Part shown: one piece after another, positions 18,469-35,599 of the stretch | Layout of the letters: the number at the start of each line of letters is the position of its first letter | Position numbering within the stretch: position 1 is the first letter of the stretch | DNA from: Moniliella sp. 'wahieum' | Taxonomy: Eukaryota | Reading direction: 5' to 3' | NCBI GenBank assembly: GCA_003971905.1 | Contig: RSEE01000018.1 | Location: 124,001 to 188,000 of the forward strand | DNA length: 64,000 bases | Notes under the pieces: model-generated | Told to the model about the DNA's origin: nothing | The model's input: only the letters and a program-made list of their open reading frames with translations | Database searches by the model: none | Made by a program: the position numbers and the translations under genes

Positions 18469-18916
18469 GACCTCGAGTATGATGTCGCCCCTTGTAGTCT
18501 TCGAGGGTGATCATGCAGCCGCACTATAGTGTTGGTGATTGTGCCAAACTACCCGACAACACTTACAGAGGGACAACCAGCAGCCAGGCATCAGCACGTA
18601 TTATTCTGTACGCACTCTCCCGATCGCCATTGAACAACAGAAGTGACATACCCATGGGAGCGCCTGTGCGTGCAGCACCACCGCGCCATCCTTCTATCTC
18701 ATCGACACGAGCTTTGGATACGATACGTCTATGCACTATCCGACGAAGAATGTAGACGGTGAAAAATAGGCATGCAAGAATACCAACAGCTGCATGATGG
18801 GGTAGAACACCACAGCACGGAAGACACAACAAATCATGAATAGGACTTACAGGCCCACATGCAGGTGATCCGTAGTGCCCCCCAGGCAGATCTGGACAGT
18901 CCGTGAGCCACATGAC

Positions 18917-20715
18917 TTAGTCGCCCGCAGCGAACTTGGAAGAAGAACGGAACTTAGCGCCCGTCATGTAGAAGAAGAAGGGGATGGGGAGCATTCCAAC
19001 GGCAATATAAAGCCAAGCAAAGAGCCTGCCCACTGGTTCGCATGTGATGGTACATGGGTGCGACAAACAATGGCACAGCCGAGGCGCAAAGCGAAGGAGA
19101 GTAGCGTCTTGGCCGCCAAGGCGAGGCCGCATAGCTCGGGTAAACATCCAACCAGGTAGTTGTTGGCGCTCAAGTAGACACTGACGAAAGCAAATCCCAG
19201 AGTCATACCACCGCCAATGCAGGGGCCAGTCCAGTGAACAAACGGCATGCTGGTCCAGGCCAAAATGAACAGACCACAGGGAAGAATGACCGCGCCAATC
19301 ATCATTAGCGGCAAACGATCTCGGGGGTATTTCCCACTTGCGCCCTTGGGCCAATCGCTTGGCAGCCGCGCGCTTGTACATAGGCTCGTTCACAAGATGA
19401 CAAATGTCAGCGCCCAACAGAATACCACAACAATTGACATAAAGGCGGTTCGGTCAAGCCTTCATGAAGTGGTGACCCTCGAGGAAAATGATCGGGAAGG
19501 CAAAGAAGAGAAGGTAAAGCAGGGCTGTACACAAGCAAGTGTCAGTACCACCTTCTCAGGATCATGGGATCTTAAGCACATACAGTGATAAGGCAAAGGT
19601 AAAGAGAGAAAAGAGTGAGGATCGCTTCCTTGACAAGCATCTCAAACGGACGGAAAAGAGAGATAACCATGTCTTGGTGAAACTGAGCTCGGTACGTTCC
19701 ATCGCAGTCTGGTATCGATCGTCACCAGTCTTTTTACGCAACTTCCTGGCCCGGGCCTTCAGGATGGCCGAGCCAAGGGTTTCAGGAACAATGATCATGA
19801 TAACAAGCATGATAAATGTGTAGGCAAAGAGAGTCCAATAAATCCAGCGCCAACCCTTGTAAATGGATGTACCCGTGGCGATCCAGCCACCGATGAGAGG
19901 TCCCATGGCGGGCCCAAGGAAGAGCACATAGAAAAGATGGCCATAGGGATACCTTTTTCCTCGACCTTCCAGATATCCGACAGGGTACCCCCACATCGTC
20001 ATGGGTGCGACGCGGCCAAGCCGGCAATCATGCGGCAAGCTAAAAAGCGTAGCCAGATTTTGGGAAATTGCGCATGGGAAACGTGAAAGACTGAGATGAG
20101 ATATGACATATGTGACAGCTCAGCAAGCAACCCCAGCGCAACCATGCTGGAATACGTACGCCAGTAGAGGATACCAGTAGCCAGATAAACGGGGCGCGAC
20201 CGATAAACTCAGAAAGGGGAGCGAAGAGCATGGGTCCAAACCCAAAGCCAGCAACGAAGAGAGTAATAGAGAGGTTGGACGATACCATCGCCACGTGCAA
20301 ATTGGCAGCAGCACCCTCAAGGTCACCAGTGGGCATGGAAGACCCAATGGCCATGCAAAAGCACAGTGCTGATGTGAACGAAGTAATTGCCCTGTTAGAG
20401 ATTGTGTCAGTGTCGGCCGCTGAGTGAGAAGGGAATGAGAGTAGGATGTGTACGGCCATTTTTTATGGTGCCGGAAGTTGCGAGGGTTGTCAGGATCATT
20501 CGGACCAACTCGACCAGAAAAGGGTCTGCTTCTCATCCTCAGCTGTACGAGAGCGGCTGGAGGTCGTATCATCAACCAGAGCGCCCTCGGCGTCATTTAC
20601 TTCCGGTTCTTCATTGGACAGAGCATCATCGTGCGAGTAAATCCTAGTGGCAGGTTCGGGCAAGTGCGACGTGTTCACGCCTTGACACGCGCGAACCGAT
20701 GGGAGCAGGAGTCAT
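18917..20715 (-). CDS. MFS multidrug/polyamine transporter, DHA1 family
   Basis: Motifs GPNDPDNPRNF..KKW, LSITLFVAGFGFGPMLFAPLSEFIGR, FLGPAMGPLIGGWI..GWRWIYW...PETLGSAILKARARKLRKKTGD and C-terminal PIPFFFYMTGAKFRSSSKFA. Confidence 0.9.
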
Positions 20716-23046
20716 GCCAAAGTCATCGGGCGAGGTGAATGTGGGAGGCTCCAGAGCTCGGTTCTCAAAGGAATGGTCAGCTGAGGACGAGACTCGCGCA
20801 TTTCGTTTACTGGGCATTTTCCGCCTTTTCGTTGACACGATGAGGGTCGGCCGCAGTAGTGGATTCAGAGGCGGAGGAAGCGCTGTTGTTGTCTGCCGTT
20901 TCAGCAGACCCAGTATGCGGCCCACGGAGACCATGATCGATGGATAAGATGTGGGATCAATGGATCTCTGGCCTCAAGGCGGGTGCGAATCGCTCGGTTC
21001 TCGTTCAAAGGCCACGAGTACGTGGCTGGCAATGGGACAAAGGGGTTGGGCAATCGTGAGAGTAGCGAAAGGAAACACGAGCAAAGAATCAGCAAAGAGA
21101 ACCGACGGTTATATACTGACTGGAAGACATGTATGGATCGGGCGATATATGAACGCCGTTTGTGCAGGTCGCTCTCGACATTGGTTTTCGATGTCTTCTG
21201 TATCAAATGTGACGTCAAATGCGATGCATGACTGGCTGGCTTGGGGCGCGATGACGCGACAGCAGGCAACAGCGCCTTCGCCTGCATCAGCACAAGGCGT
21301 AACCTGGTGCATGAGACACGGTGCTACGCGTTGTACACATTTGACCCATATGTGCATTAGATTTATGTGGTCCTGTCTTGGCGTCAGCTCCGGGATCTAA
21401 GCGTCGCATCTTCCCTGCTTAAATCTTAACGCTCTCTTGAAGGTTCGGCTTCAAGGCTGAGCTTCAGCCTCAGCTTCCGTCCGCCTCACAGGGTTCCTAC
21501 TGTGATTAATGATTGGGCTTAGTATGCACTTGCACTATGCTGTTTGGAACGAGCGCAGGGCAGCAAGAGGACCTACTGTGATGATGAGACCTGTGGACTC
21601 GAGGGCAATGCATCGCACTGGTGTGGTGGTGGTCTAACCCAAGTCAGCACCGCCTACAGATGAGGAACATCAAGCAGTCCTCATGCATCAGTCGTGCCAT
21701 GAGACCTGAGGCCGGGAGTCTCTATAGGCTGCTGCTAAGGTGACGCCGGTGACGGGTGACGGATTGCTTGACATGATGCATGATGTATGATGGGACGTGC
21801 GACGGCTTGCGGCCGCGTGTTGCGATGTAAGATGTGTAGTATGGTGGCGCCCTGGTCGCTACGGTGGCCAGTGCGTGCGAGCTTCATGGACCCGATAACT
21901 GGATTACTCATTACTCAGCTGAGTACTCATTGCCTCTGCAGGTATGCAACTCTCAGAACGACTTTCTGCTCGATGGTCATCCGGTCATCGGTCCTCATCG
22001 ATCATCGATCATTAATCATCGACCATCTAACGTCTAACATCGATCAAAAAGCCACAGCTGATGGCCTCATAGATCAGCTGGGACGCCGGCTGTCCGGGTG
22101 CCTCCTTTTGTATGACCCTTGTCCATCCTGTGTGTCTCGATCGCAGGTTGCTCGGGATGCTCTTGGGACTGCATTATCGAAATCTGAGCTGACTAAGACT
22201 TGTCTTGGGCAAATGGGTTGCCACAGGGGGAACCCACTAATTATACACTTTTTTTTCACCCTGTGTATAGTGCTACTTAAACATGCAAAAAGCACGCCAG
22301 GGAACCCTCTTGACATTCTCGCTGTAGCGAGCACCGCTCTGTGTTGGTATCTAGAATTGGAAGGACCCGTGAACGTCGTCGCGAACGTTGGATTTGATTG
22401 ACATGTGACGCCTATATCGATAGATCTCGACGTAGAGATCAACGCCCCAACGAAGCACTCGCTTGTTCCGTGCCCGATGCCTGCAGAGGCCCAAGGTCTG
22501 AGGAAGGCCCAAGCGCTGAGAGGGGCCTGAGGGCCTAAGCCTGACGGCGCAGAGGACTGGGGCTCTGATATCCGATGTCGCTGAGGGCCTTTATTAGGGC
22601 TGAGGGCCTCTCTGTGAAGCTTTGTTGCCTCTCTAGCTGAGATGCTGAGGACATTTATATCGGGCTGAGACGCTGAGGATGCTGAGGCCTGAGGAGCCTC
22701 CAACTGGGGTGGCTGGGGGGTTGATCTTCGTCAGCTGGTCACCTGCGCCGGTTACCGGTGAAGGCCCATGCCCTATATTAGGGCTTAGCGCTAAGGCTTA
22801 GCGTTATAGAAGCATCTCGGACAGAGTACGATGATAGTGGGGCGTCCGGAGGACGATGTATCATGGTGAGTAGTACGATGATTCCGGTGTGGCCTGTGAT
22901 GTGGAACCTGGTCTGCCCCCTCATCCGTCCGTAGTCTCCGGTCATGCACATGCATTTTGGTCCTGGGACGCTCGAGTCAAAAGCTGCCTGGCAACGTCCT
23001 TTCCACTGGTCTCGAGAGAGTCACGTATACTCGAGTCACCTCCATG

Positions 23047-23415
23047 TGTTGGGGTTCAACGTTCACTAAGAACAAACAAAGGGACCAACGAAAATCCTTG
23101 ACGAGAGAAAGAGTCAAGGTTGGAATGGCAGGTTATAGGCCCGACCCTGGGGGGGGCAGGGAAAGAGGACAGATGTTGGAAGAGACTTTTGCGGGCCAAA
23201 TTACGACGCCAAAGGTGTGGGAGAGGAATAGAACATCAAAGGTGCTGAAGGAGGAGTGGAATGGAGGATGTGGTTCTGAGGAGAGGTACAGGAGGCTATG
23301 AGAAGGGTAGGGCCTTATATAGACGAGGGTACCGCGGAGCTGAGGAAGCTTCCGGGCGGATAAGAGGGGGGTAATGACTATCACGCGGATGTGCGTGATT
23401 GGGCATCGCCCCACA
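23047..23415 (-). mobile_element. Possible solo or relic LTR of a second family
   Basis: Bounded by TGTTGGGG...CCCCACA. Minus-strand CTATATAAGG (23313-23322) is followed by a C/T-rich tract. Contains Copia-PBS-like GGTTATAGGCCC at 23131-23142. No TSD found. Confidence 0.35.
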
Positions 23416-23484
23416 AAAGGATGCCACATATTCTCCTGTTTGCTATACTCAGAGGGTTGTGTGGCTGGCTGTGTACCATATACC

Positions 23485-23735
23485 TGCTAGAGTGCGACTG
23501 GGAGCACTCGCGATCCTAGGATCAGCTGCGAAGCAGCCTTCAGACAAGGCATGAAGGCAAAGTGGGAGCCACAAGTCTTCAAGCAACGTCTGAAGGGAAG
23601 GAGAAAGGAGAGAGAGAAGGGAGTGAGAGCGAGCAGGGGTGCGCGGCCTGCGAGCGGAACGCTTCCGACTCGGCTGGCGAGCGTCACCGATCCATTGAGG
23701 GCCCCGCAGGAGAAACCCTAGCAGTACCTCTAACA
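23485..23735 (-). repeat. 3' LTR
   Basis: Near-identical to 27191-27443 (mostly single-base indels). TG...CA ends with an imperfect 8-bp terminal inverted repeat. Confidence 0.9.
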
Positions 23736-23899
23736 GCCCCCTCGGTGAGCTCGCCAGACACAGGTGTGGTGGTCCTCGGCCAAGGGCCAAGGCATGGATG
23801 AAAGAAGAAGAAAGGATGTCTCCAGCGCCTCTGGTCAAAAAGTGAAAGGAAAAAAATTGGCAAGCGATGTTGCAAAGTCGAGGGTAAGAGAAACAGTAG

Positions 23900-24260
23900 A
23901 TTCAACGCATGGAGGTAAGGAGGAAGCGTAGAAAGTCACAGAGGTCATTCAACTGGAAGTATAAACAATGTTCCAAGTCGAAACAGGATGTTCAGTGAGT
24001 ATGAGGGAGGAAAGTAGAAGTCATAGAGGTCGATTCAACTTGGAGGTAGAAAAAACATGTTCCAAGTCGAAAGAGTATGTTGAACGTGTGCAGGTAAGGA
24101 AGTTTTGAAAGTCATAGAGGTCGATTCTCAACTTGGAGATATAGACAACATATGCCAAGTCGAACCGAAGCCAAAGTCGAACAGAAAACGTAAGTTGGAG
24201 GTCGAGAGTAGAGCCATAGAAGGCAATTCAACTGGAAAAGAAACCAACAAGTCAAGTGGC
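23900..24260 (-). repeat. Degenerate ~87-100 bp tandem array, about 4 copies, inside the LTR element
   Basis: AAGTCAYAGAGGTC(G)ATTCAACT(T)GG...CCAAGTCGAA recurs near 23933, 24018 and 24109, with a degenerate copy near 24211. Confidence 0.75.
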
Positions 24261-24469
24261 ACAGTCATGAAAAGAGAAAAAGGACCAAATTCGGAACAGA
24301 AAAAAGATGACGACTGGTTCAACCGCCACGCGGACCAGCGTCAACGATGGTTCAAAAGTTACCTTGTAGGTGATCAGTACACTTCGCAAGCAGCACCGCT
24401 GGCAAAGGAGCGACCAAAGTCTTCCGGGCCCGGGTCAGGGATGAAAGTGCAACGGCTGCCCATGTAGCG

Positions 24470-25085
24470 TACACTAGAGACAGTGCCTCCCGTCTTGAGA
24501 CAGCCAAAGAAACTCCCACTTGGGCCAGAAAGGAAACCATAGCCGCCCATGCAGCCCACATAGTTAACAGCACCGCCAATCTTGGAACGGTCAAGGTACC
24601 CGCGCCGGGTCAGGTAGGAAACGGCCAAACCATTAGTGTAACCTAAACCGTCAACAGCGCCACTGCTCTTGAGACGGTCGAAAGTATCCCCCGCCCGGGT
24701 CAAGTAGAAAATTGCCACAACCATTAGTGTAGCCGAAACTGTCAACAGTAGCACTGGTCTTGGGACGGTCAAGTACCCCCCGCCGTGTCAAAGAGGAAAC
24801 TGCCACCGCTGTCAGTGTGGCCCAAACTGTCAACAGCAGCACTGGTCTTGGGACGGCCAAAGTACCCCCCGCCCAGGTCAGATAGGAAAGTGCCACCGCT
24901 TCCCGTGTAGCCCAAAACATAAACGGTGCCCCCGATCGTGGATCGGTCAAAGTACCACTGGTCTGAGTCAGGTAAGAAACTGCCACAGCCGCCCGTGTAG
25001 CCCAATCGTAAACGGCGCCTGTGATCTTGGAACGATCAAAATACCACCCGCCCGGGTCAGATAGGAAGCCGTCAGAACCGCCCAT
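24470..25085 (-). repeat. ~90 bp tandem array, about 7 copies, reading as 30-aa units
   Basis: Anchors (GTCAACAG/TAAACGG) near 24564, 24650, 24741, 24829, 24920 and 25009. The minus-strand unit approximates GYTNGCGNFLLDPGGGYFDRPKTSATVDSF. Confidence 0.85.
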
Positions 25086-25564
25086 CATGTTGGGTGCAAT
25101 GGGAGAGCGAGACGTTAAAGCAGAGCACACAAGAGGGCCAACGAGTCCGCACATTACCTCCCTAGTAACCAAGTAAGAAGGGCAGCTAGGGTGGATTGCG
25201 TCGGTGGGCCCGGCCTTGGGACCTCAGATCAGTATCAATATTCTCTTCCGACATGACAATGTGTGCCTGAGGATCGGTACCGTGCCGTACGCAATTTGGA
25301 ACAGGCAGGCCTGCCAACACATGGTGAGATCGCTGAAAAGGGTGGGTGGGAGGGAACAGTAAGGCAAGGTGGTCCGGGCGCGTAAATGCATGTGCGGAAG
25401 GACGGGGGTAGCCCCCCTTTTTTCCCGCATCCCGTCGATGGCCGCAAGCTCTGACACAGCGGCTCGCCTTCCCTGCGTATGGTGCTAGGCCGACCATGCA
25501 AAGCTTGTCCGCAAGCTCGGCGACCGTTAATTCTCCATGTCCAGCCGCCAGGTCGACACCGCCA

Positions 25565-25815
25565 CAGCCATCGGCCCCCTTGATCGGACGCTCGGCCAAT
25601 AGCAGCGCACGACATCGGTCCCCCTTGGTCAGGCACCAGGCCGACACGTCCACACGCCATCGGCCCCCCTTTGTCAGGCGCTGGCCAATGCACCACACGC
25701 TATCGGCCCCCTTTGTCAGGCGCTTGGCCAATGGCACCACACGCGGTCGGCCCCCTTTGTCGGGCGCCTGGCCAATAGCACCTCACGCTATCGGCCCCCC
25801 TTGGTCGGGTGCCTG
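25565..25815 (-). repeat. ~44-45 bp tandem array, 6 copies
   Basis: ATCGGCCCCC(C)TT(T/G)GTC(A/G)GGCGC-TGGCCAAT-like units near 25570, 25614, 25659, 25703, 25746 and 25790. Confidence 0.85.
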
Positions 25816-25899
25816 ATGGACGTCAATGGGAACCGGGCCACCAAGCGCCTGATCGGGTGCCTGATCCTGAGCCACGATAGCAACTGACATGGGCCTGGT

Positions 25900-26420
25900 G
25901 GAATGCACCTCCCGTGACGCATAGTCACCACCCGCTGGGGGTAAGTCCGGGCCGACAGATGCCATCGCAGCCACAGGATCCGGCTTGGCGATAGCAGCTG
26001 GCGTGGACCTGGGGGATGCCCCCAGTGACGCATGATCACCACCCGCTGGGGGGTAATCCGGACCAACAGATGCCATCGCAACCGCTGGAACCTGAGCAGC
26101 AACAGCAACTGACCCCTCCTGGAGCGAATGCGCCCCGACGTCGTATGGACTTGATCCGCGGTCGTGAATCAGGGTCGACGGATTCCATCGGAGCCACAAG
26201 GTCATGAACCACGACAGCAGGTGACATGGACTCGGAGGAATGTGCTTCCGACGGTATACAGGCACCATGTTCTGTGAGTAAGTTCGGGCCTACAGACGGC
26301 ATTGCTGCAACAGGGTCATACCCAACAGCAGCTAACTCAGCCCCGGACTTGGGACTAGCGGAATGCATCGTCAGTAAATCAGGACCAACGCGTGGCATCT
26401 TGCCCAGAGGCTCATGGGCG
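25900..26420 (-). repeat. ~100-115 bp degenerate tandem array, about 5 copies (AMASVGPD-like peptide unit)
   Basis: GTGACGCAT..TCACCACCCGCTGGGGGTAA..CCGG..C.ACAGATGCCATCGCA at ~25914 and ~26025. The peptides MASVGPD, MESVDPD, MPSVGPN and MPRVGPD recur on the minus strand. Confidence 0.7.
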
Positions 26421-27190
26421 ACAGCAACTGGCTCACACGCGGGCGAAGCAAGGTGTCCGCTGGCTCGCTGGCACCACGAGCCGGGAAAGGCTCGTCAACG
26501 AGTGGTGCTGCAGCCAGAGGTATACCAGCACGATCACGAGGGCAATCCACATGCTTGGGGCCAGACCGACCACAACTTGGGGCTCTCTGTACAGTTCGCT
26601 GGGTCGAGGAGCATGTCACGCATGGCACGACGCTTCAGAGCGACACGCTTGCGAATTGTTTGGAAGCCTGATCGATCTCGTACAGTTTCCAAGCAAGCCG
26701 CACATCACGGAGACACTGGTCAGTTGCCACGCAAGTCATCAATGCTAGAGAAGCAGTGGTTCCTGGTGTAAAAGGCATAGGCAACATAGAAGTCGGTCGG
26801 TGTGAGCAAGACGTCTTCGCCGCCATGGTCCTTGCTGTAGTTGGCAACGAGATTAGCCACCAAGGAGTCCTTGTCTGCCACTGTCGAACCAGGGAGCGGG
26901 GAGGCGATGCCACTCATCGGCATACCCCAGTGGCGAATGGTAGGAATGACTTCAGGATGAACTGGCAGCGACGTCCTCGTCAACGTCCGAAAGAACGGCG
27001 TTCAGTTTAGCCCAAGCATAAGTCGTGCCTTGATGCGAAAATCCGGCCACTTCGCTGTCGTGCCAGGGGCTATCCCGACTTGGGAGTTGGGGTCAAACTC
27101 GCCACGACGAACATACGCTTCCACAATGTCGCGAGGCGAGTAAACCGGGTGCGCAGAATGCGCAGAGGCAGAGATAAGGGCGACATAACC

Positions 27191-27443
27191 TGCTAGAGTG
27201 CGACTTGGGAGCACTCGCGAGCCTATGGATCAGCTGCGAAGCAGCCTTCAGACAAGGCGTGAAGGCAAAGTGGTGAGCCACAAGTCTTCAAGCAACGTCT
27301 GAAGGGAAGGAGAAGGAGAGAGAGAGGGAGATGGAGCGAGCAGGGCGTGCGCGGCCTGCGAGCGGAACGCTTCCGCTCAGCTAGGCGAGCGTCACCGATC
27401 CATTGAGGGCCGCGCAGGAGAACCCTAGCAGTACCCTCTAACA
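27191..27443 (-). repeat. 5' LTR
   Basis: Homologous to 23485-23735 and followed on the minus strand by the PBS. Confidence 0.9.
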
Positions 27444-28268
27444 GGAGGGGGCTGGTGACCACGGACTATGGTAAGTACTGTTTCCAAGGTTGGTTCAAGC
27501 GCACGGGTGTGGGTGTCGTGGGCGTGAACCCTGAGCACAGTCGTGGTTGTACACCGAGCTGTAGTGTCTGTGGTTCGCCATGATTGCGGTAGCCACAGCA
27601 CCGGCTAAAGTATACTCCACCACATTCTGGTCTGCATCTGCCGAGATAGCCGCTGATCGGGCTCGCTCGTTGTGGGGGCAAGAAAACATCTGCCTCCGAT
27701 CCATGGGTCCGGAACGAAGCGGTATAGGGATGTCGAAGCGATTAATGGGATCATAGTAGAATGTATTGAACTCGTCCATGACTGTCTCCTAGCCAGGATG
27801 ATCGGGCCGTCGCCCAAGACGGCTGCGCACTAAATATAAGGGGGGATGCGTAGGAGGCGCAGCTGTGCTAGGCTTCGCAGGAACTGATGGAGGTGGCCAA
27901 ACCTGGGGAGTCCTTGGCAGAGTAAGATCCATGCCGATAGGTGTATAGGCACCATTATGTCGACCAACTCACAAAAAAAGTAACGGCCATTTCGCAGCCG
28001 TTTCCCGCATTTGCACCCCCAAGAGATTACATGGATCGATCGATGATCGGGTGGTGGTCGCGTCTATCGCATCGGAAGTAGACGGGAGAATTTCCATTAT
28101 CACAGCTCACCTAGCGCGGTTAGTTAGATGACGCGCCTGCCCTGCCAACTCATCTTTGTTGCCCATATACCCTCCTTGTTTCGGATGAGACCCACATGCA
28201 ATCACAGTCGTCGTTCTTGTCGCTGCGTGCACAAGGCTCCAAAAGAAACACGACAGAGGAACCCCCCG

Positions 28269-29115
28269 TCAGGATGAGGAGTGGAAAAAGGAACCAAAAA
28301 GGAAAAACAGGATGATCTCCAGAGCAGCCGCAGCAATTGTTAGCCAACAAGCCCAACGAAAAGAAGAACCGAAAGTGTATCTCGCACGAAAGCACTTACC
28401 AGCGCGCAGAATACCGCCATGGCCATTACCCGCGTGTTCTTCCACCACATTTGCCTCCGCAGACCCACAGCGCGGCGGCGGAAATGTAAGCTTTGGTTGG
28501 CCGCTTGGTCGGTGCGGTCCACAAGCGTGTCCAGTCGTTCCCCGCGCGAAAGAACTTGGTCAATGTTGGCCTGCATAACTTCGCGCGCGCCTCGCAGCTC
28601 TGCGCGAGCGGAGGCGGCGGCATCGGCCGAGGGTTGTTATAAGACTTGAGGATTCCCGATAGCCACGCAGAGAATGATGTGTACTTTTTGGTGCCATCCT
28701 GTCCCGCCGACTTGCCCACCTGCGCCGCTTCGGCAACATCGAACTGCGCTCCAATTTTTTGCATCGCACTCAGCATCGCGAACGGCACCCGGCGGCCCGA
28801 GTCGGCATCGGAGACATTGAGGTAGACCAGGCCGTCTTCGGCAATAAAGTGGAACATCCATGGTTCGTTAGGGATGGCATACGACAGGCGCGACGCGTTT
28901 GGAGGGATGCGCGCCAGAATGGTCCCGGCCGCGGTCTGTTTAGGGTGTTAGTGTTAGCGCACCGTCCGACTAAGCCGTTCCGGGCAGCAGGGGCGGCCAG
29001 CGGGCCAGATGGCAAGGAGGGGGGGGGATTACGCACCAAGAAGCGCGCATGCTCTTCGTCGTGGGATTCGACGAGAACAGGGACCGCTGGCCACGAGCGC
29101 AAGGACGATGGGCAT
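28269..29115 (-). CDS. VAMP7: Longin-domain R-SNARE (VAMP7/Nyv1-like synaptobrevin)
   Basis: Longin MFHFIAEDGLVYLNVSDADSGRRVPFAML, R-SNARE MQANIDQVLSRGERLDTLVDRTDQ...FRRRAVGLRRQMWWKN and a C-terminal TM segment. Putative intron 28399-28317 (GTAAGT, GCTAAC). Confidence 0.85.
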
Positions 29116-29494: not shown

Positions 29495-32400
29495 ATGTCG
29501 GGCCTGCTCCAGCCCGGCGACGGCACCTTCCTCCCGCGCCTCGTCAGCGTCTTCTTCGCCATCTTCCACCCCCAGCACGGGCCCGTGGTGCTGTACGACG
29601 TGCCCGAGGGCAGCGTCGCCGAGACATCCTCTCCGCCCCCTCCCGCCCGCCTCCCGCGCCTACGCCGGCGCGCCCGCCGCCCGCCGCCCGCCGCACCAAC
29701 CCCCCGCCCATCCGGCGACCTCCGCCATGCCCAGTCCTACTTTGCGCCCGGCGACATTGACCGCGTTTCCAGCCGGCCCGATCCGGCGGCCAGCCTTGTG
29801 TACGGCTCTCCCACCACGCCCCGTCCCCCCTCCGATTCCCAGGGGGACTTGGCATTTTCCCCGCCGCTCCCTACGCCTCGGCAGAACGACCTGGGACCGG
29901 CGCCCGATTCCCTGGCTGGTCTCTCCCCCCATGCTGGTGGACCGCAACCCGAGGCAAGTGTGATCACCATTCGCGCTTCGGCCGGCCAGAGCGCCATGAC
30001 CATTCGGCCCTCTCGCTCCAGCAGCAGCCACAGAAACGGCAGGCGCACCAGCCGCCCTGGCCATCTTGATGTTGGCCCGCATCACACGTCCTTGAGTCCC
30101 GAACCACAAGAAGACGAGGATGACACGCCGGCGCTGATCAAGCCCGCTGTGCGCCTGTTTGACTTTAACCTTGTTTCCCACCTCCTCATCCTCCTCCACT
30201 ATGTGTGGACGCTTGTTTATCTGCTGTGCTCCTGCGCTCCCTCCGCCCGAATCGGCCGTCACAGAGCAAGATGAGGAGAAGGACAAGGATAAGCGCGGAC
30301 GTGGACGGGGCCGGGGTCGTCAATGGAGCCGCTCCCCGTCGCGGGAATCTCTTCTAAGTCGTGACTCGACGCAGTCCTCCTCCGTTACGAGTGGCGCTAC
30401 GGAGTACAAAATTGTATCCCATCCTGTCGCTTTGCAACACGAGAAGTACGAGCGGATGAACTTGGTGTACAATTGTGCTTTGTCTTTGACGCCGGTGCCA
30501 GTACGACCGCGTACGAAGGGGTGGTACGCAAGTGTGCCAGGGCTCTGCGTGACCTCGAGTTGACGGCGGGGTTCTTAAGCCAGCCCCACAATTTGCGGAG
30601 AATGCACAATGTGCGAGCAGTTGTATGAAGACCTCAACTCCTACTGCGAGTCCTTTGTCGCCCTTCCGTCTCAGCCTCACACGAATTTTCTCTTGGACGA
30701 TGGCAGCACCCCTCGCTTGGCAGTGAATGCCGCCCCCGAAGTCGCCGAGCGTGCCATCAATCGTATCCACCCGTCCCCCAAGCGGGACCGAAAGAAGTAC
30801 TCCTCTCCCGACTGGTCCTCCGCCAACGCCAACGAAGACACGTTGGAAGCCAAGGTTCTCCTCTCTCTGGGTGACTCGGAAGAAGGAAAGAAGTTGCAGG
30901 AGGGACTGTTGAGTTTGAACAAGGCCGTTGCCGCAGCCATGGCCGGGGAGGAGCTTGAGACTGACACGCAAGCTCTTCCCCAGATTGACCGAAAAGGCCG
31001 CCCGCTTCCTGTTGCCACCAAGGAGCTCTTGCCCAAACGGCGCGAACCTCCGCATGGGCTTGGAAGAACTGTGCAGGAAGCCATCAATGTGAAGCTCTTC
31101 CCCACTTACCCCAACCCTCCTCCGGCCCAAGACTGGGACGTGCCAGTGGCGCTGCTGAGCCTGACCGAACGCATTACAGGCGATTGGGATTTAACCATGT
31201 CCAAAGTACGAGGCTCTCCTCCCCTGTTTTGGCTGAGTAGGAAGGCGAGAACTGACTTGCATTGGGCTCTCTCTGTAGGTCATTCCCTTTATTGACGGCA
31301 TCCGTCACGTGCGCCGCATTGCCCAGCTTGCCGATACCGACTTGGATCTCACCCGCCAATGTATGGAGCACCTGTTGTTTTACGGCTGCATTGTCATGAA
31401 TGACATTTTCCAACACTCGAACATTTACACCGTCCGTCCTCTTCTCGCCCGCGAGGGAAGCAACGACGAGCTGTTTGCCGAATGTGGCCAGTACGTAACC
31501 CGGCTATCGTATCCGGTTGTGGGGCACGCCAAGCTGCTGGAGCTCTTTGCCGCGTTTACGCCAACCAAGACCGTTGCGCAGTGGTGCGATGAACAAAAGG
31601 TGGACAGCCTTGGCATTGACGCTCGTCGGTTTGTCTCGTTTGGTACGCTCAAGGGATTGCTACGTCGGATGCACCGGATCCCGGTGGTCTCCTCCTCGGA
31701 CTTTCCCTTGGACGTGACGTTTGAGCAGCCGGCCGTGTCTGCGCAGAGCCGGTCTCGTTCCGGTGCGCGCAGCCGCCGAACGGTGTACGATGCCGACATG
31801 GACATGCCCAGTCCTGAGGACTCGCGCCACGTTCCTGCGCCCTTGATCAGTCCGCAAGCGCGGGCCTGGTGGGGATCCATCTCGGGCAATGGTGGTGTGG
31901 CTGCCCCGCACCTTCCGGCCCCCGATCGGGGCCGGACGCGCAGGGGCGTGGCGGGCAAACGTGATCTCCAGCTGATCCGGGAAGAGAGTTGGGCACCGAG
32001 CTCGACCCACAGTCGCGAAGGATCGTACACGACCCAAGACGATTCTCACCACCGTCATCACCATCGCGCCCGTCCGCGCTCGCACCACCGCCGGCCTATG
32101 GCCAACACGGCAACCGACCCTGCTTCGCTCGCGTTCCAATCTGCTGCCCAAGCCCAGGCGCTGTCGGAGAAACCGCCGACGACGACCAGCTCGCCTGGCC
32201 CGGAATTCCCCAGATTCAAGGGACCGGGCAGTACATCCCCGTCTCGCAACGGATCCGAGGGGCGAATCCCAGTTCTGGATCGGGCTCTGGGTGGGCTCCC
32301 GACCCAGTTATCCCTCGACAGCTACGTTTACCCCGGGCATGTTTGCGCCTCAGTCCTCCCCGCAACGCGAGGGGGACAGCATGGACGTGTCGGGCACGCC

Positions 32401-33039: not shown

Positions 33040-33655
33040 CAATCGTCGAGGTAGGGTAGATCAAAGCCAAGTCGGGCCTCAGGATTGCTCTCGAGGGGGG
33101 GGGGGGGGTCTCCGAACAGAAGGGACGCTGACAGTGCCCGCTAGGTAGTACCCCTCCCATCTACCGAGCAACTGGCAAGACAACGCTCCTGGCAACCCCC
33201 CGGTGGCCCCTTGGGCATTCAGTAGTTCGGAACCAGTACTCAGTCTGAGTTTTCAGTCCTGCCACGTCTCCTTCTCCGGCTGCATTTGGGCTTCATCTGG
33301 CTTGACCGCGGTGGCAGTGTAACTAATGCGCAAGGCGACAAGATGTGGTCATTCTGCGGGCCCGCTACACAACGCTACTAGTTGGATGTGGCGGCAGTGG
33401 GCCCGGCAAAACCCATTCATTAATCATTCCCTGGAGATTTTTTTGGACTGCCAGCCATGGAATCGTAACATGTAACGAGGTCCCAAGAACGTTCCAACGT
33501 TCAACGTCTCCGTTCAACGTTTCGGCGTTCCGTTCGGCACGGCCTGCGATGTGCATGTGACACACGACACGTTCCGTCTGCTACAGTATGCATTCCCACA
33601 CGCGCCGTTCGCTCCTCCCCCTGCGCCTGGACGCGGTACGTGTCTCGCGCCAGTC

Positions 33656-34003
33656 CCAGCGTCCAGCGTCCACGTCCAGCGTCCAGCGTCCAGCGTCCAG
33701 CGTCCAGCGTCCAGCGTCCAGCGTCCAGCGTCCAGCGTCCAGCGTCCAGCGTCCAGCGTCCAGCGTCCAGCGTCCAGCGTCCAGCGTCCAGCGTCCAGCG
33801 TCCAGCGTCCAGCGTCCAGCGTCCAGCGTCCAGCGTCCAGCGTCCAGCGTCCAGCGTCCAGCGCCAGCGTCCAGCGTCCAGAGCGTCCAGCGTCCAGCGT
33901 CCAGCGTCCAGCGTCCAGCGTCCAGCGTCCAGCGTCCAGCGTCCAGCGTCCAGCGTCCAGCGTCCAGCGTCCAGCGTCCAGCGTCCAGCGTCCAGCGTCC
34001 AGC
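33656..34003 (+). repeat. (CCAGCGT)n heptamer array, about 50 copies
   Basis: Directly visible, with three small interruptions. Confidence 0.98.
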
Positions 34004-34191
34004 TGCGAAGCTCGTAAATGTTCGGATGGACTACGTTGCGTTCCACGTTCACGCGTCACGCGTCACGCGTCACGTTTCCCCCCGGGGGGCCGTACCACCA
34101 AACTGCGACACCTAAGCTTGGCTTCCTGTGCGTACTGCGTTGCGTTCCTTCTAGAGTAGCTACCACGCGCCACGCATGGAACGTAGGGTCC

Positions 34192-34287
34192 CCAACGTCC
34201 AACGTCCAACGTCCAACGTCCAACGTCCAACGTCCAACGTCCAACGTCCAACGTCCAACGTCCAACGTCCAACGTCCAACGTCCAAC
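34192..34287 (+). repeat. (CCAACGT)n heptamer array, about 13-14 copies
   Basis: Directly visible and perfect. Confidence 0.98.
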
Positions 34288-35599
34288 CCAGCGTTCGATG
34301 AAACGTGGGATCTCAGGAGAACTGCACCCTGCACCAGCCCAGCCCGCGGATGCAGGATGGCCCAAGCTCCAACCTGCTCTATCCAACACACTACCGGTTG
34401 GGGCCATGCCCCATGCACCATGAGATCTGGCAAGCTGTTTGGTCGCCCGAGGTTCGTTCGCAGAGCCCAAACGAACGGTCATTAACATTGGGAGAGAGCG
34501 AGCGGATCAAGCTCCAAGGATAGTCGATAGCGCCAGGAGAATGCTACTTGGTGGCAGACAGGACGGTGTATACAATCGCACTCAGTACTCAACACTCAAC
34601 GTTGAGTGTTCAACCCCGAAAGCAACGCATCAAACCAACGAACGCGAGGGTACTAGTTACGCTTCGAGACAGGTGCGGGCCGGACAGGAGCCGACGAGGC
34701 AGAGGGCTTGCCGCCGCACCAAAGCAACCAAGGTAGGACCGCACAAGCATCTGAACCGAGTGTCGAACCGCGTCCTTCGGGGCACCTGGGCGCCCATACG
34801 CGCACAATGCATCACGAGTCAAGGGCGCGGCGAGGGACGGGAAAAGGAGGGAGAGGTCCAAGTCGGAGCCGCCGATCGAGGCCAGTGGCAGCCAGTGCAA
34901 AGGAGCGCTGTTGACGTCCACGTGTTCACGGGGGAAGGCAACCGAAACCGGCATGCAGACCCACTGAGCTGGCGACCGACGACGGAGAGAGTGCACCAAG
35001 GTAGAGTGTCTCGTAGTGCTGGCGTCGTAGGATGGGGAAGAGCCCAGGCCTGTGGGAGAGGCAGGGGTGTGCGTACGAGCACGAGACGCTGGACAATGTG
35101 GTGACACACCAAGAGGCAAGAGAAGAGAACAAGGCTAAATCAAATGAGACGAGAATGGGGTCGTGGTAGACAACGGGATGGAGCAACAGGGAGAAGAGGG
35201 GCAAAGAGTATGTGGTGGTTGGGAGGAGGGAGGAGGAGGAGGGAGGAGGGAGGGGGGAGGGGGTTCACTTGTATCCATCCCAAATGCACAACGCATCAAG
35301 GGAAGACCCGGAACGCATATCACACACCGACAGGGGCGCTACGTCGGTTTGCCAAGTTCTGGGCGGGCGAACCGAGCCTGAGGGCCCCATGCCAACCTAC
35401 CTGTCTCATGCCAAAACGGGAGGGAAAGCAGAACAGGATGGAAGTGGAAACAACGAGTGGAACAAGAGCGATGTGGACCAAGAGGAAGCAACGCAGGTAG
35501 GCGTGAGTACAAACGCTGGGCGAGGGGAGGGGAGAGGATGAAAAAGCAAGAGAAAAAAAGGGGGGTATACGCGCAAGTCCAACCCAACTCTGCCCCATT

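Follow-up and report, generated by a model that had tools for sequence, protein, structure and literature searches.

A probable non-autonomous LTR retrotransposon of Moniliella sp. 'wahieum' with tandem-repeat arrays in place of gag and pol

What kind of element has the ends of a retrotransposon and, between them, tandem repeats instead of recognizable retrotransposon genes? A stretch of 64,000 nucleotides from Moniliella sp. 'wahieum' (assembly GCA_003971905.1, contig RSEE01000018.1, positions 124,001 to 188,000 of the forward strand; hereafter the window) raises this question through a 3,959-bp element on the minus strand at window positions 23485-27443. The initial annotation of this locus, made from the sequence alone, described a Copia-primed long terminal repeat (LTR) element whose pol region is replaced by four tandem arrays, and proposed that it encodes one long Gag-repeat fusion protein and is mobilized in trans. 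Our analysis leads us to regard the locus as probably a pol-less, non-autonomous LTR retrotransposon, present as a single copy in a GC-rich basidiomycete chromosome, with three interior arrays that may lie in a frame of about 900 codons. The class of object is real but ordinary and its form is unusual; the case for a maintained repeat open reading frame (ORF) is built on moderate statistics and unreliable sequence.

The boundaries of the element are defined by a pair of long terminal direct repeats. The 5′ LTR (27191-27443, minus strand, 253 nt), which reads TGTTAGAG...CTCTAGCA on the minus strand, is a direct repeat of the 3′ LTR (23485-23735, minus strand, 251 nt); both copies have TG..CA ends, and they share 240 identical positions. 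This pair is the sole long dispersed repeat in the window. Neither a second copy of the LTR or of the element nor any other LTR pair occurs elsewhere in the window, and a 27-nt word from the LTR has 0 matches when metagenomes are scanned for it. Look-ups of the LTR, the interior and a 168-amino-acid ORF in the index of the scan likewise return nothing similar. Directly inside the 5′ LTR, with no intervening gap, lies the primer-binding site (PBS) GGTTATGTCGCCC (27190-27178, minus strand), and a polypurine-like tract (PPT) GAGGGGGC (23743-23736, minus strand) abuts the 3′ LTR. The tract, GAGGGGG(C), is short, with 7 purines only, and its placement is correct. When the locus is read on the plus strand, the left LTR is not followed by a PBS-like word; that orientation is ruled out, and the element is assigned to the minus strand because the plus orientation offers no PBS. 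The two LTRs, the PBS and the PPT of the initial annotation are thus all confirmed.

Published oligonucleotides antisense to initiator tRNA-Met (iMet) contain GGTTATGAGCCC in the case of yeast (PMC11230868) and GGTTATGGGCCC in the case of zebrafish. The PBS of the element agrees with these oligonucleotides in the 7-mer GGTTATG and in GCCC, and its center reads TC where they have a single base, a difference of one substitution and one extra base. On account of this match we assign the PBS to the iMet anticodon-arm (half-tRNA) type, in agreement with the original assignment and with the central position excepted. No tRNA genes occur in the window, and an Rfam search of positions 23000-28000 (E up to 1) returns no match. 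Half-tRNA priming by iMet is used by copia and Ty5 (PMC5371799), and the iMet arm is the dominant primer type of the fungal Helenus TRIMs (miniature retrotransposons with terminal repeats) and is also found in rust Copia families (PMC10886601). The element described here resembles these systems in that its PBS, immediately adjoining the LTR, opens with GGTTATG and goes on with GCCC, complementary to the iMet anticodon arm, and differs from them in the central TC in place of the one base of the published oligonucleotides. The PBS type is the sole feature that points to a Copia partner.

Profile searches with Pfam covered all ORFs within 11.5-32.4 kb of the window and, outside that interval, ORFs of at least 200 amino acids. 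None of the 27 ORFs of at least 50 amino acids, and none of the six frames read through stops, reaches the cut-off of any Pfam family, those of protease (PR), integrase (IN), reverse transcriptase (RT) and RNase H (RH) included; the six read-through frames produce two stray sub-threshold lines only (E = 0.2 and 9.1). The Copia superfamily is recognized by RT and integrase domains in the order PR-IN-RT-RH. Here no RVT_2, rve, RVP or RNase H domain is detected, not even as RVT_2 or rve remnants, and the element is not classifiable under Copia because these domains are absent. The hidden Markov model search therefore upholds the absence of protease, integrase and RT first reported. Without pol enzymes the element requires mobilization in trans, as was first proposed, through a helper whose existence we infer from this requirement.

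In place of pol, four tandem arrays with periods of 111, 44/45, 90 and 89 bp, all recovered with Tandem Repeats Finder (TRF), fill roughly half of an interior of 3.4 kb and confirm the four arrays originally noted. Read along the minus strand, the interior opens with a unique 5′ leader of 730 nt (26448-27177) that has no detectable homology and may be a Gag relic or a packaging region. The 111-nt array follows (25861-26447, minus strand); TRF counts 1.8 copies and nhmmer 5.4 units, the nhmmer profile giving 6 matches with E values from 1e-7 to 1e-31. Its sense frame reads ..PVAAMASVGPDLPPAGGDYAS.., with about 37 residues per unit, and its M codons are spaced by 96, 114, 112 and 111 nt. Next comes the 44/45-nt array (25548-25815, minus strand), which comprises six units (5.8 by TRF) with lengths of 45, 44, 42, 45, 45 and 45 nt; its sense frame encodes the 15 residues QAPDKGGPxACGxIG and contains one in-frame TGA, in unit 1. 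A unique spacer without homology (25115-25547, minus strand) separates this array from the 90-nt array and requires 1 frame switch versus 2.4 ± 1.0 in shuffled sequences, a difference that is not significant. The 90-nt array itself (24403-25114, minus strand) has 5.5 copies by TRF and 8 units by unit alignment, with the 30-residue sense frame LGYTxxGGxFLxDxGGGYFDRxKxxGAVDx.

The last stop codon of this ORF-like zone (...AACEVY*) lies at 24374-24376 on the minus strand, upstream of the 89-nt array (23919-24164, minus strand, 2.8 units by TRF). The consensus of the 89-nt array contains stops in all six frames; this array is non-coding and part of the 3′ untranslated region. Two earlier expectations are revised by this result. 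Periods close to multiples of 3 hold for the 111-, 45- and 90-nt arrays and fail for the 89-nt array, and the minus-strand ORF fragments do not continue to the PPT, since the ORF-like zone ends at 24374.

Is the zone upstream of 24374 an ORF? All three arrays within it have periods divisible by 3 (111, 45 and 90), an outcome with a chance probability of about 1 in 27, and the larger differences in unit length amount to -15, +3 and -3 nt. Across the 2,045 nt from 26420 to 24376, the sense strand requires 4 frame switches, versus 10 on the opposite strand and 11.2 ± 2.1 in 300 shuffles. We then compared stop codons in the candidate frames with the number expected from random substitution at the observed divergence, placing the units in consensus coordinates and discounting indels. 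Over all three arrays there is 1 stop in 484 codons versus about 6.7 expected. The 111-nt array has 0 stops in 174 codons of the frame AAMASVGPD.. (2.5 expected), the 90-nt array has 0 stops in 225 codons of the frame LGYT..GGGYFDR.. (3.6 expected, P = 0.025), and the 45-nt array has 1 stop in 85 codons of the frame QAPDKGGP.. (0.55 expected). The deficit is thus found in one specific frame in each of the two long arrays. These stop and frame statistics moderately support a former or present repeat ORF. In our estimate it is about as likely as not that the family has, or once had, a sense ORF of some 900 codons with its end at 24374. The proposal of one long Gag-repeat fusion is thereby borne out in part, with respect to the sense-strand repeat ORF; its Gag portion is unproven. 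A more specific interpretation is offered as a tentative one, less likely than not. It holds that a pol-less LTR family carries a long ORF of three in-frame arrays with units of 37, 15 and 30 residues, kept open by selection while the residues drift, and that the resulting orphan protein, which may be a degenerate Gag's tail, rides on an iMet-primed Copia element.

The quality of the assembled sequence bears directly on how this frame can be read. The LTR pair differs by 4 substitutions versus 12 indels, each of 1 nt, with 6 missing from each copy. Neutral decay would leave the opposite ratio of substitutions to indels and a spread of indel lengths, and the pattern seen here is that of an uncorrected long-read consensus. 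The 3:1 excess of single-base indels therefore indicates assembly errors, and frameshifts in the element are not to be trusted as biology. Most of them are probably single-base assembly errors; in the 44/45-nt array, four units have G5 in place of G6, and three of these are the ones in which the frame slips. For this reason LTR identity gives no date for the insertion.

The evidence that weighs against our favored reading begins at the insertion site. No 5-bp target-site duplication is present (ATACC versus GGAGG), the 8-nt flanks have no common 4-mer, and neither the pair nor either LTR alone is bordered by a duplication. Because both this duplication and a second copy in the window are missing, the family is only presumably mobile. 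Recombination between copies or a flank deletion might simply account for the missing duplication. The same absence would fit a locus that is not one insertion at all, but consists of two related LTRs that recombination between copies has brought to either side of foreign DNA, or of LTRs around a captured host repeat-protein gene in a transduction like that of Bs1. Capture of host genes by LTR elements has a precedent in Bs1 (PMC13317346), and odd short similarities just outside the LTRs of our element could be read in the same way. On the minus strand at 23470-23484, GGTATATGG after the 3′ LTR resembles the PBS word GGTTATG; at 27444-27460, an inverted copy of the PPT 8-mer GAGGGGGC stands before the 5′ LTR, beside GGTGACC (compare GGTGAGC inside the element). 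These words prompted us to consider a tandem LTR-interior-LTR-interior arrangement, an idea that was dropped because the outer flanks match the inner ends no better than shuffled sequence does (local alignment scores of 18-19 versus shuffle means of 18.0-19.2). The absence of significant flank similarity also speaks against a composite locus, as do the PBS and PPT lying directly inside the LTRs in the right orientation and the failure of protein searches to find a host-like homologue of the interior. We therefore consider such an origin very improbable.

The remaining counter-evidence concerns the translation of the interior of the proposed single element. The ratio of nonsynonymous to synonymous differences (pN/pS) between units is 0.78 for the 90-nt array and 0.89 for the 111-nt array over the whole unit; a 16-codon core gives 0.49, but this figure suffers from bias, the core having been anchored on a peptide motif. 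An array grown from one stop-free unit would be open without selection, and the 90- and 111-nt units each have another open frame as well. A phmmer search with an 88-amino-acid repeat piece reveals no relatives among 1.84 billion representative proteins: its five weak matches (E = 2e-7 to 9e-4) are sums of repeat-on-repeat alignments, and the three of the five that were inspected are all unrelated repeat proteins. Word-indexed protein searches with three pieces (a 168-amino-acid ORF against longer proteins, the leader, and a 198-amino-acid ORF) return none, and the ESM Atlas yields no usable match. The language-model recognition score is 1120, below the 2300 reached by 91 of 100 known-family proteins, and AlphaFold2 run on the single sequence gives a mean predicted local distance difference test score of 33.6 and no predicted fold. 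GC content by codon position is unlike that of host genes, a measure that we rate as uninformative. Finally, host genes in the window retain ORFs of up to 736 codons, with at least one frameshift in NPR2, and because host ORFs stay long the high indel rate appears local to the element. Poor polishing of multi-copy or repeated DNA would explain such local noise.

Much of this counter-evidence, namely the missing homology and fold, the low language-model score, pN/pS values of 0.78-0.89 and the two frames open at once, would be accommodated by a non-coding derivative similar to the large retrotransposon derivatives (LARDs). Its interior would never have coded or would have lost coding long ago, its arrays would be satellite-like as in the plant elements Ogre and Retand, and its open frames and periods would have arisen by chance. 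The plainly non-coding fourth array fits this description. Arrays within LTR elements are well known (PMC7004042; PMC11963269), and basidiomycetes have annotated non-coding LTR derivatives (PMC5689174). Three features run counter to it: the divisibility by 3 of all three periods in the stop-poor zone, the asymmetry between 4 and 10 frame switches on the two strands, and the stop deficit in one specific frame in each of the two long arrays. A LARD is defined by a long interior that lacks coding capacity, and the element combines absent homology with too few stops, strand asymmetry and array periods of 111, 45 and 90 nt, against which the pN/pS of 0.8-0.9 has to be set. We regard a LARD-like origin as a serious alternative, though one that is less likely than not.

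A different division of the evidence arises if the leader encodes a genuine Gag. In such an element, similar to the TR-GAG group, a true Copia Gag with capsid and zinc knuckle would be fused in frame to the arrays as a Gag-repeat fusion protein. The initial annotation had recognized a Gag-like start, and the one trace suggestive of it is a degenerate knuckle-like motif, CGRSGPKHVDC, which together with a preceding basic stretch (IRKRVALKRRAMRD) occupies 26574-26542 about 190 codons past the leader start. Copia Gag carries its knuckle at about this position. The pattern CG..G[HP]....C, chosen post hoc, occurs once in the 127,996 six-frame residues of the window. The first 111-nt unit begins about 100 nt beyond the knuckle; the ORF with the knuckle (26371-26634) and the ORF of the array (26036-26494) overlap but lie in different frames. 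Against these points, the motif presents 2 of the 4 zinc ligands, and neither the six frames (E up to 10) nor the ORFs (E up to 1) match the Pfam families for gag, UBN2, DUF4219 or zf-CCHC. The leader read through one TGA has no match in the protein database, and a PDB sequence search with three leader frames returns unrelated enzymes only, all with E above 1. Nor is the openness of the leader special, with 3 frame switches on the sense strand versus 2 on the other, and the KWPDF frame has no upstream ATG. Together these results render a Gag fusion unlikely.

If the locus is a pol-less element with a repeat frame, it keeps only the cis-acting parts needed for copying, namely two LTRs, an iMet-arm primer site and a short purine tract. 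Transcription would start from the 5′ LTR, and a cleaved initiator tRNA-Met would prime reverse transcription by pairing of its anticodon arm. For packaging, reverse transcription and integration it would depend on an autonomous Copia-type helper elsewhere in the genome, which would supply Gag, RT and integrase. Where gag and pol would be expected, the interior would provide the 730-nt unique leader followed by the 111-, 45- and 90-nt arrays, whose growth within the sense frame is best ascribed to slippage or template switching. The product of this frame would be a repeat-rich orphan protein with weakly constrained residues, and the fourth, non-coding 89-nt array would sit in the 3′ untranslated part of the transcript.

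How does this element compare with known non-autonomous LTR retrotransposons? It is similar to the TR-GAG elements described by Chaparro et al. (2015) in having LTRs, a PBS and a PPT, a size below 4 kb (3,959 bp), no PR, IN, RT or RNase H, one proposed sense ORF and presumed mobilization in trans (PMC4350172). TR-GAG elements are described from plants only; they possess a clear Gag ORF with UBN2 and a zinc finger, have 5-bp duplications and lack internal ones (PMC4350172). The element studied here, in contrast, has neither a single ORF with recognizable Gag and zinc finger nor a target-site duplication, and arrays constitute half of its interior. With LARDs and TRIMs, which are named in the same report (PMC4350172) and annotated in basidiomycetes (PMC5689174), it shares the LTR-PBS-interior-PPT-LTR arrangement, the lack of recognizable coding domains and the need for an autonomous partner. 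The existence of such non-coding derivatives in basidiomycetes weakens the suggestion that the architecture is new for fungi. Interiors of LARDs and TRIMs are taken as non-coding, whereas three arrays here lie in a nearly stop-free sense frame. The length of 3,959 bp falls between the usual sizes of TRIMs and LARDs.

Further parallels are found among plant elements with unusual interiors. Ogre (PMC7004042) and Retand (PMC11963269) carry family-specific short arrays in their interiors, especially upstream of the 3′ LTR, a position comparable to that of the 89-nt array. Both are autonomous Gypsy elements in which the arrays occupy the untranslated stretch from pol to the 3′ LTR; the present element has no pol, and in the place of gag and pol stand three arrays whose periods are divisible by 3. 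Maize Bs1 is a non-autonomous LTR element whose interior ORF is unrelated to pol and is composed of identifiable host gene fragments (PMC13317346), while the ORF considered here consists of internal repeats and matches no known protein. Arrays in LTR elements, pol-less elements with odd ORFs and fungal iMet half-tRNA priming are thus each already known separately. Keyword searching of open-access text found no fungal pol-less element with several in-frame arrays.

The genomic setting is that of a fungal chromosome. The 64-kb window is GC-rich eukaryotic DNA with fungal housekeeping genes, among them those for SAM/PH/SH3 proteins, NPR2, an amino-acid permease, Arf, an Omp85/Sam50-like protein and a longin/synaptobrevin SNARE. 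The element is flanked by an MFS-like fragment (about 19.6-20.1 kb) and by the SNARE gene (28343-28947, minus strand). Within the MFS region (18900-21000, minus strand), a single ORF fragment (19565-20119) matches MFS_1/Sugar_tr and the adjoining ORFs have no Pfam match; the region holds a transporter gene that has decayed or one that is heavily frameshifted. In NPR2, the frame changes at 31279-31292 without a gap in the Pfam profile, profile position 227 ending one ORF and starting the next, and this change is likely a single-base assembly error in a host gene. Two further repeats were observed in the window: a long run of tandem repeats at 14-nt spacing (2 x 7) in three blocks at 33608-34343 (family D1, 29 registers), and a small tandem repeat of 16 nt in 1.9 copies at 22664-22695, about 800 bp from the 3′ LTR of the element.

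For this assembly, one practical consequence is that LTR-based dating and ORF calls on repeats are unreliable. For the element itself, what follows depends on whether the arrays are translated. If they are non-coding, the locus simply parallels, in a fungus, the plant elements that bear arrays, and holds little further interest. The usual view of non-autonomous LTR elements is that they carry nothing or a Gag. Should a maintained repeat frame prove true, its protein might be of use to the parasite, for instance by taking part in packaging or by competing with the Gag of the helper, or translation itself might protect the element RNA, and internal arrays would then arise within a retroelement frame in fungi.

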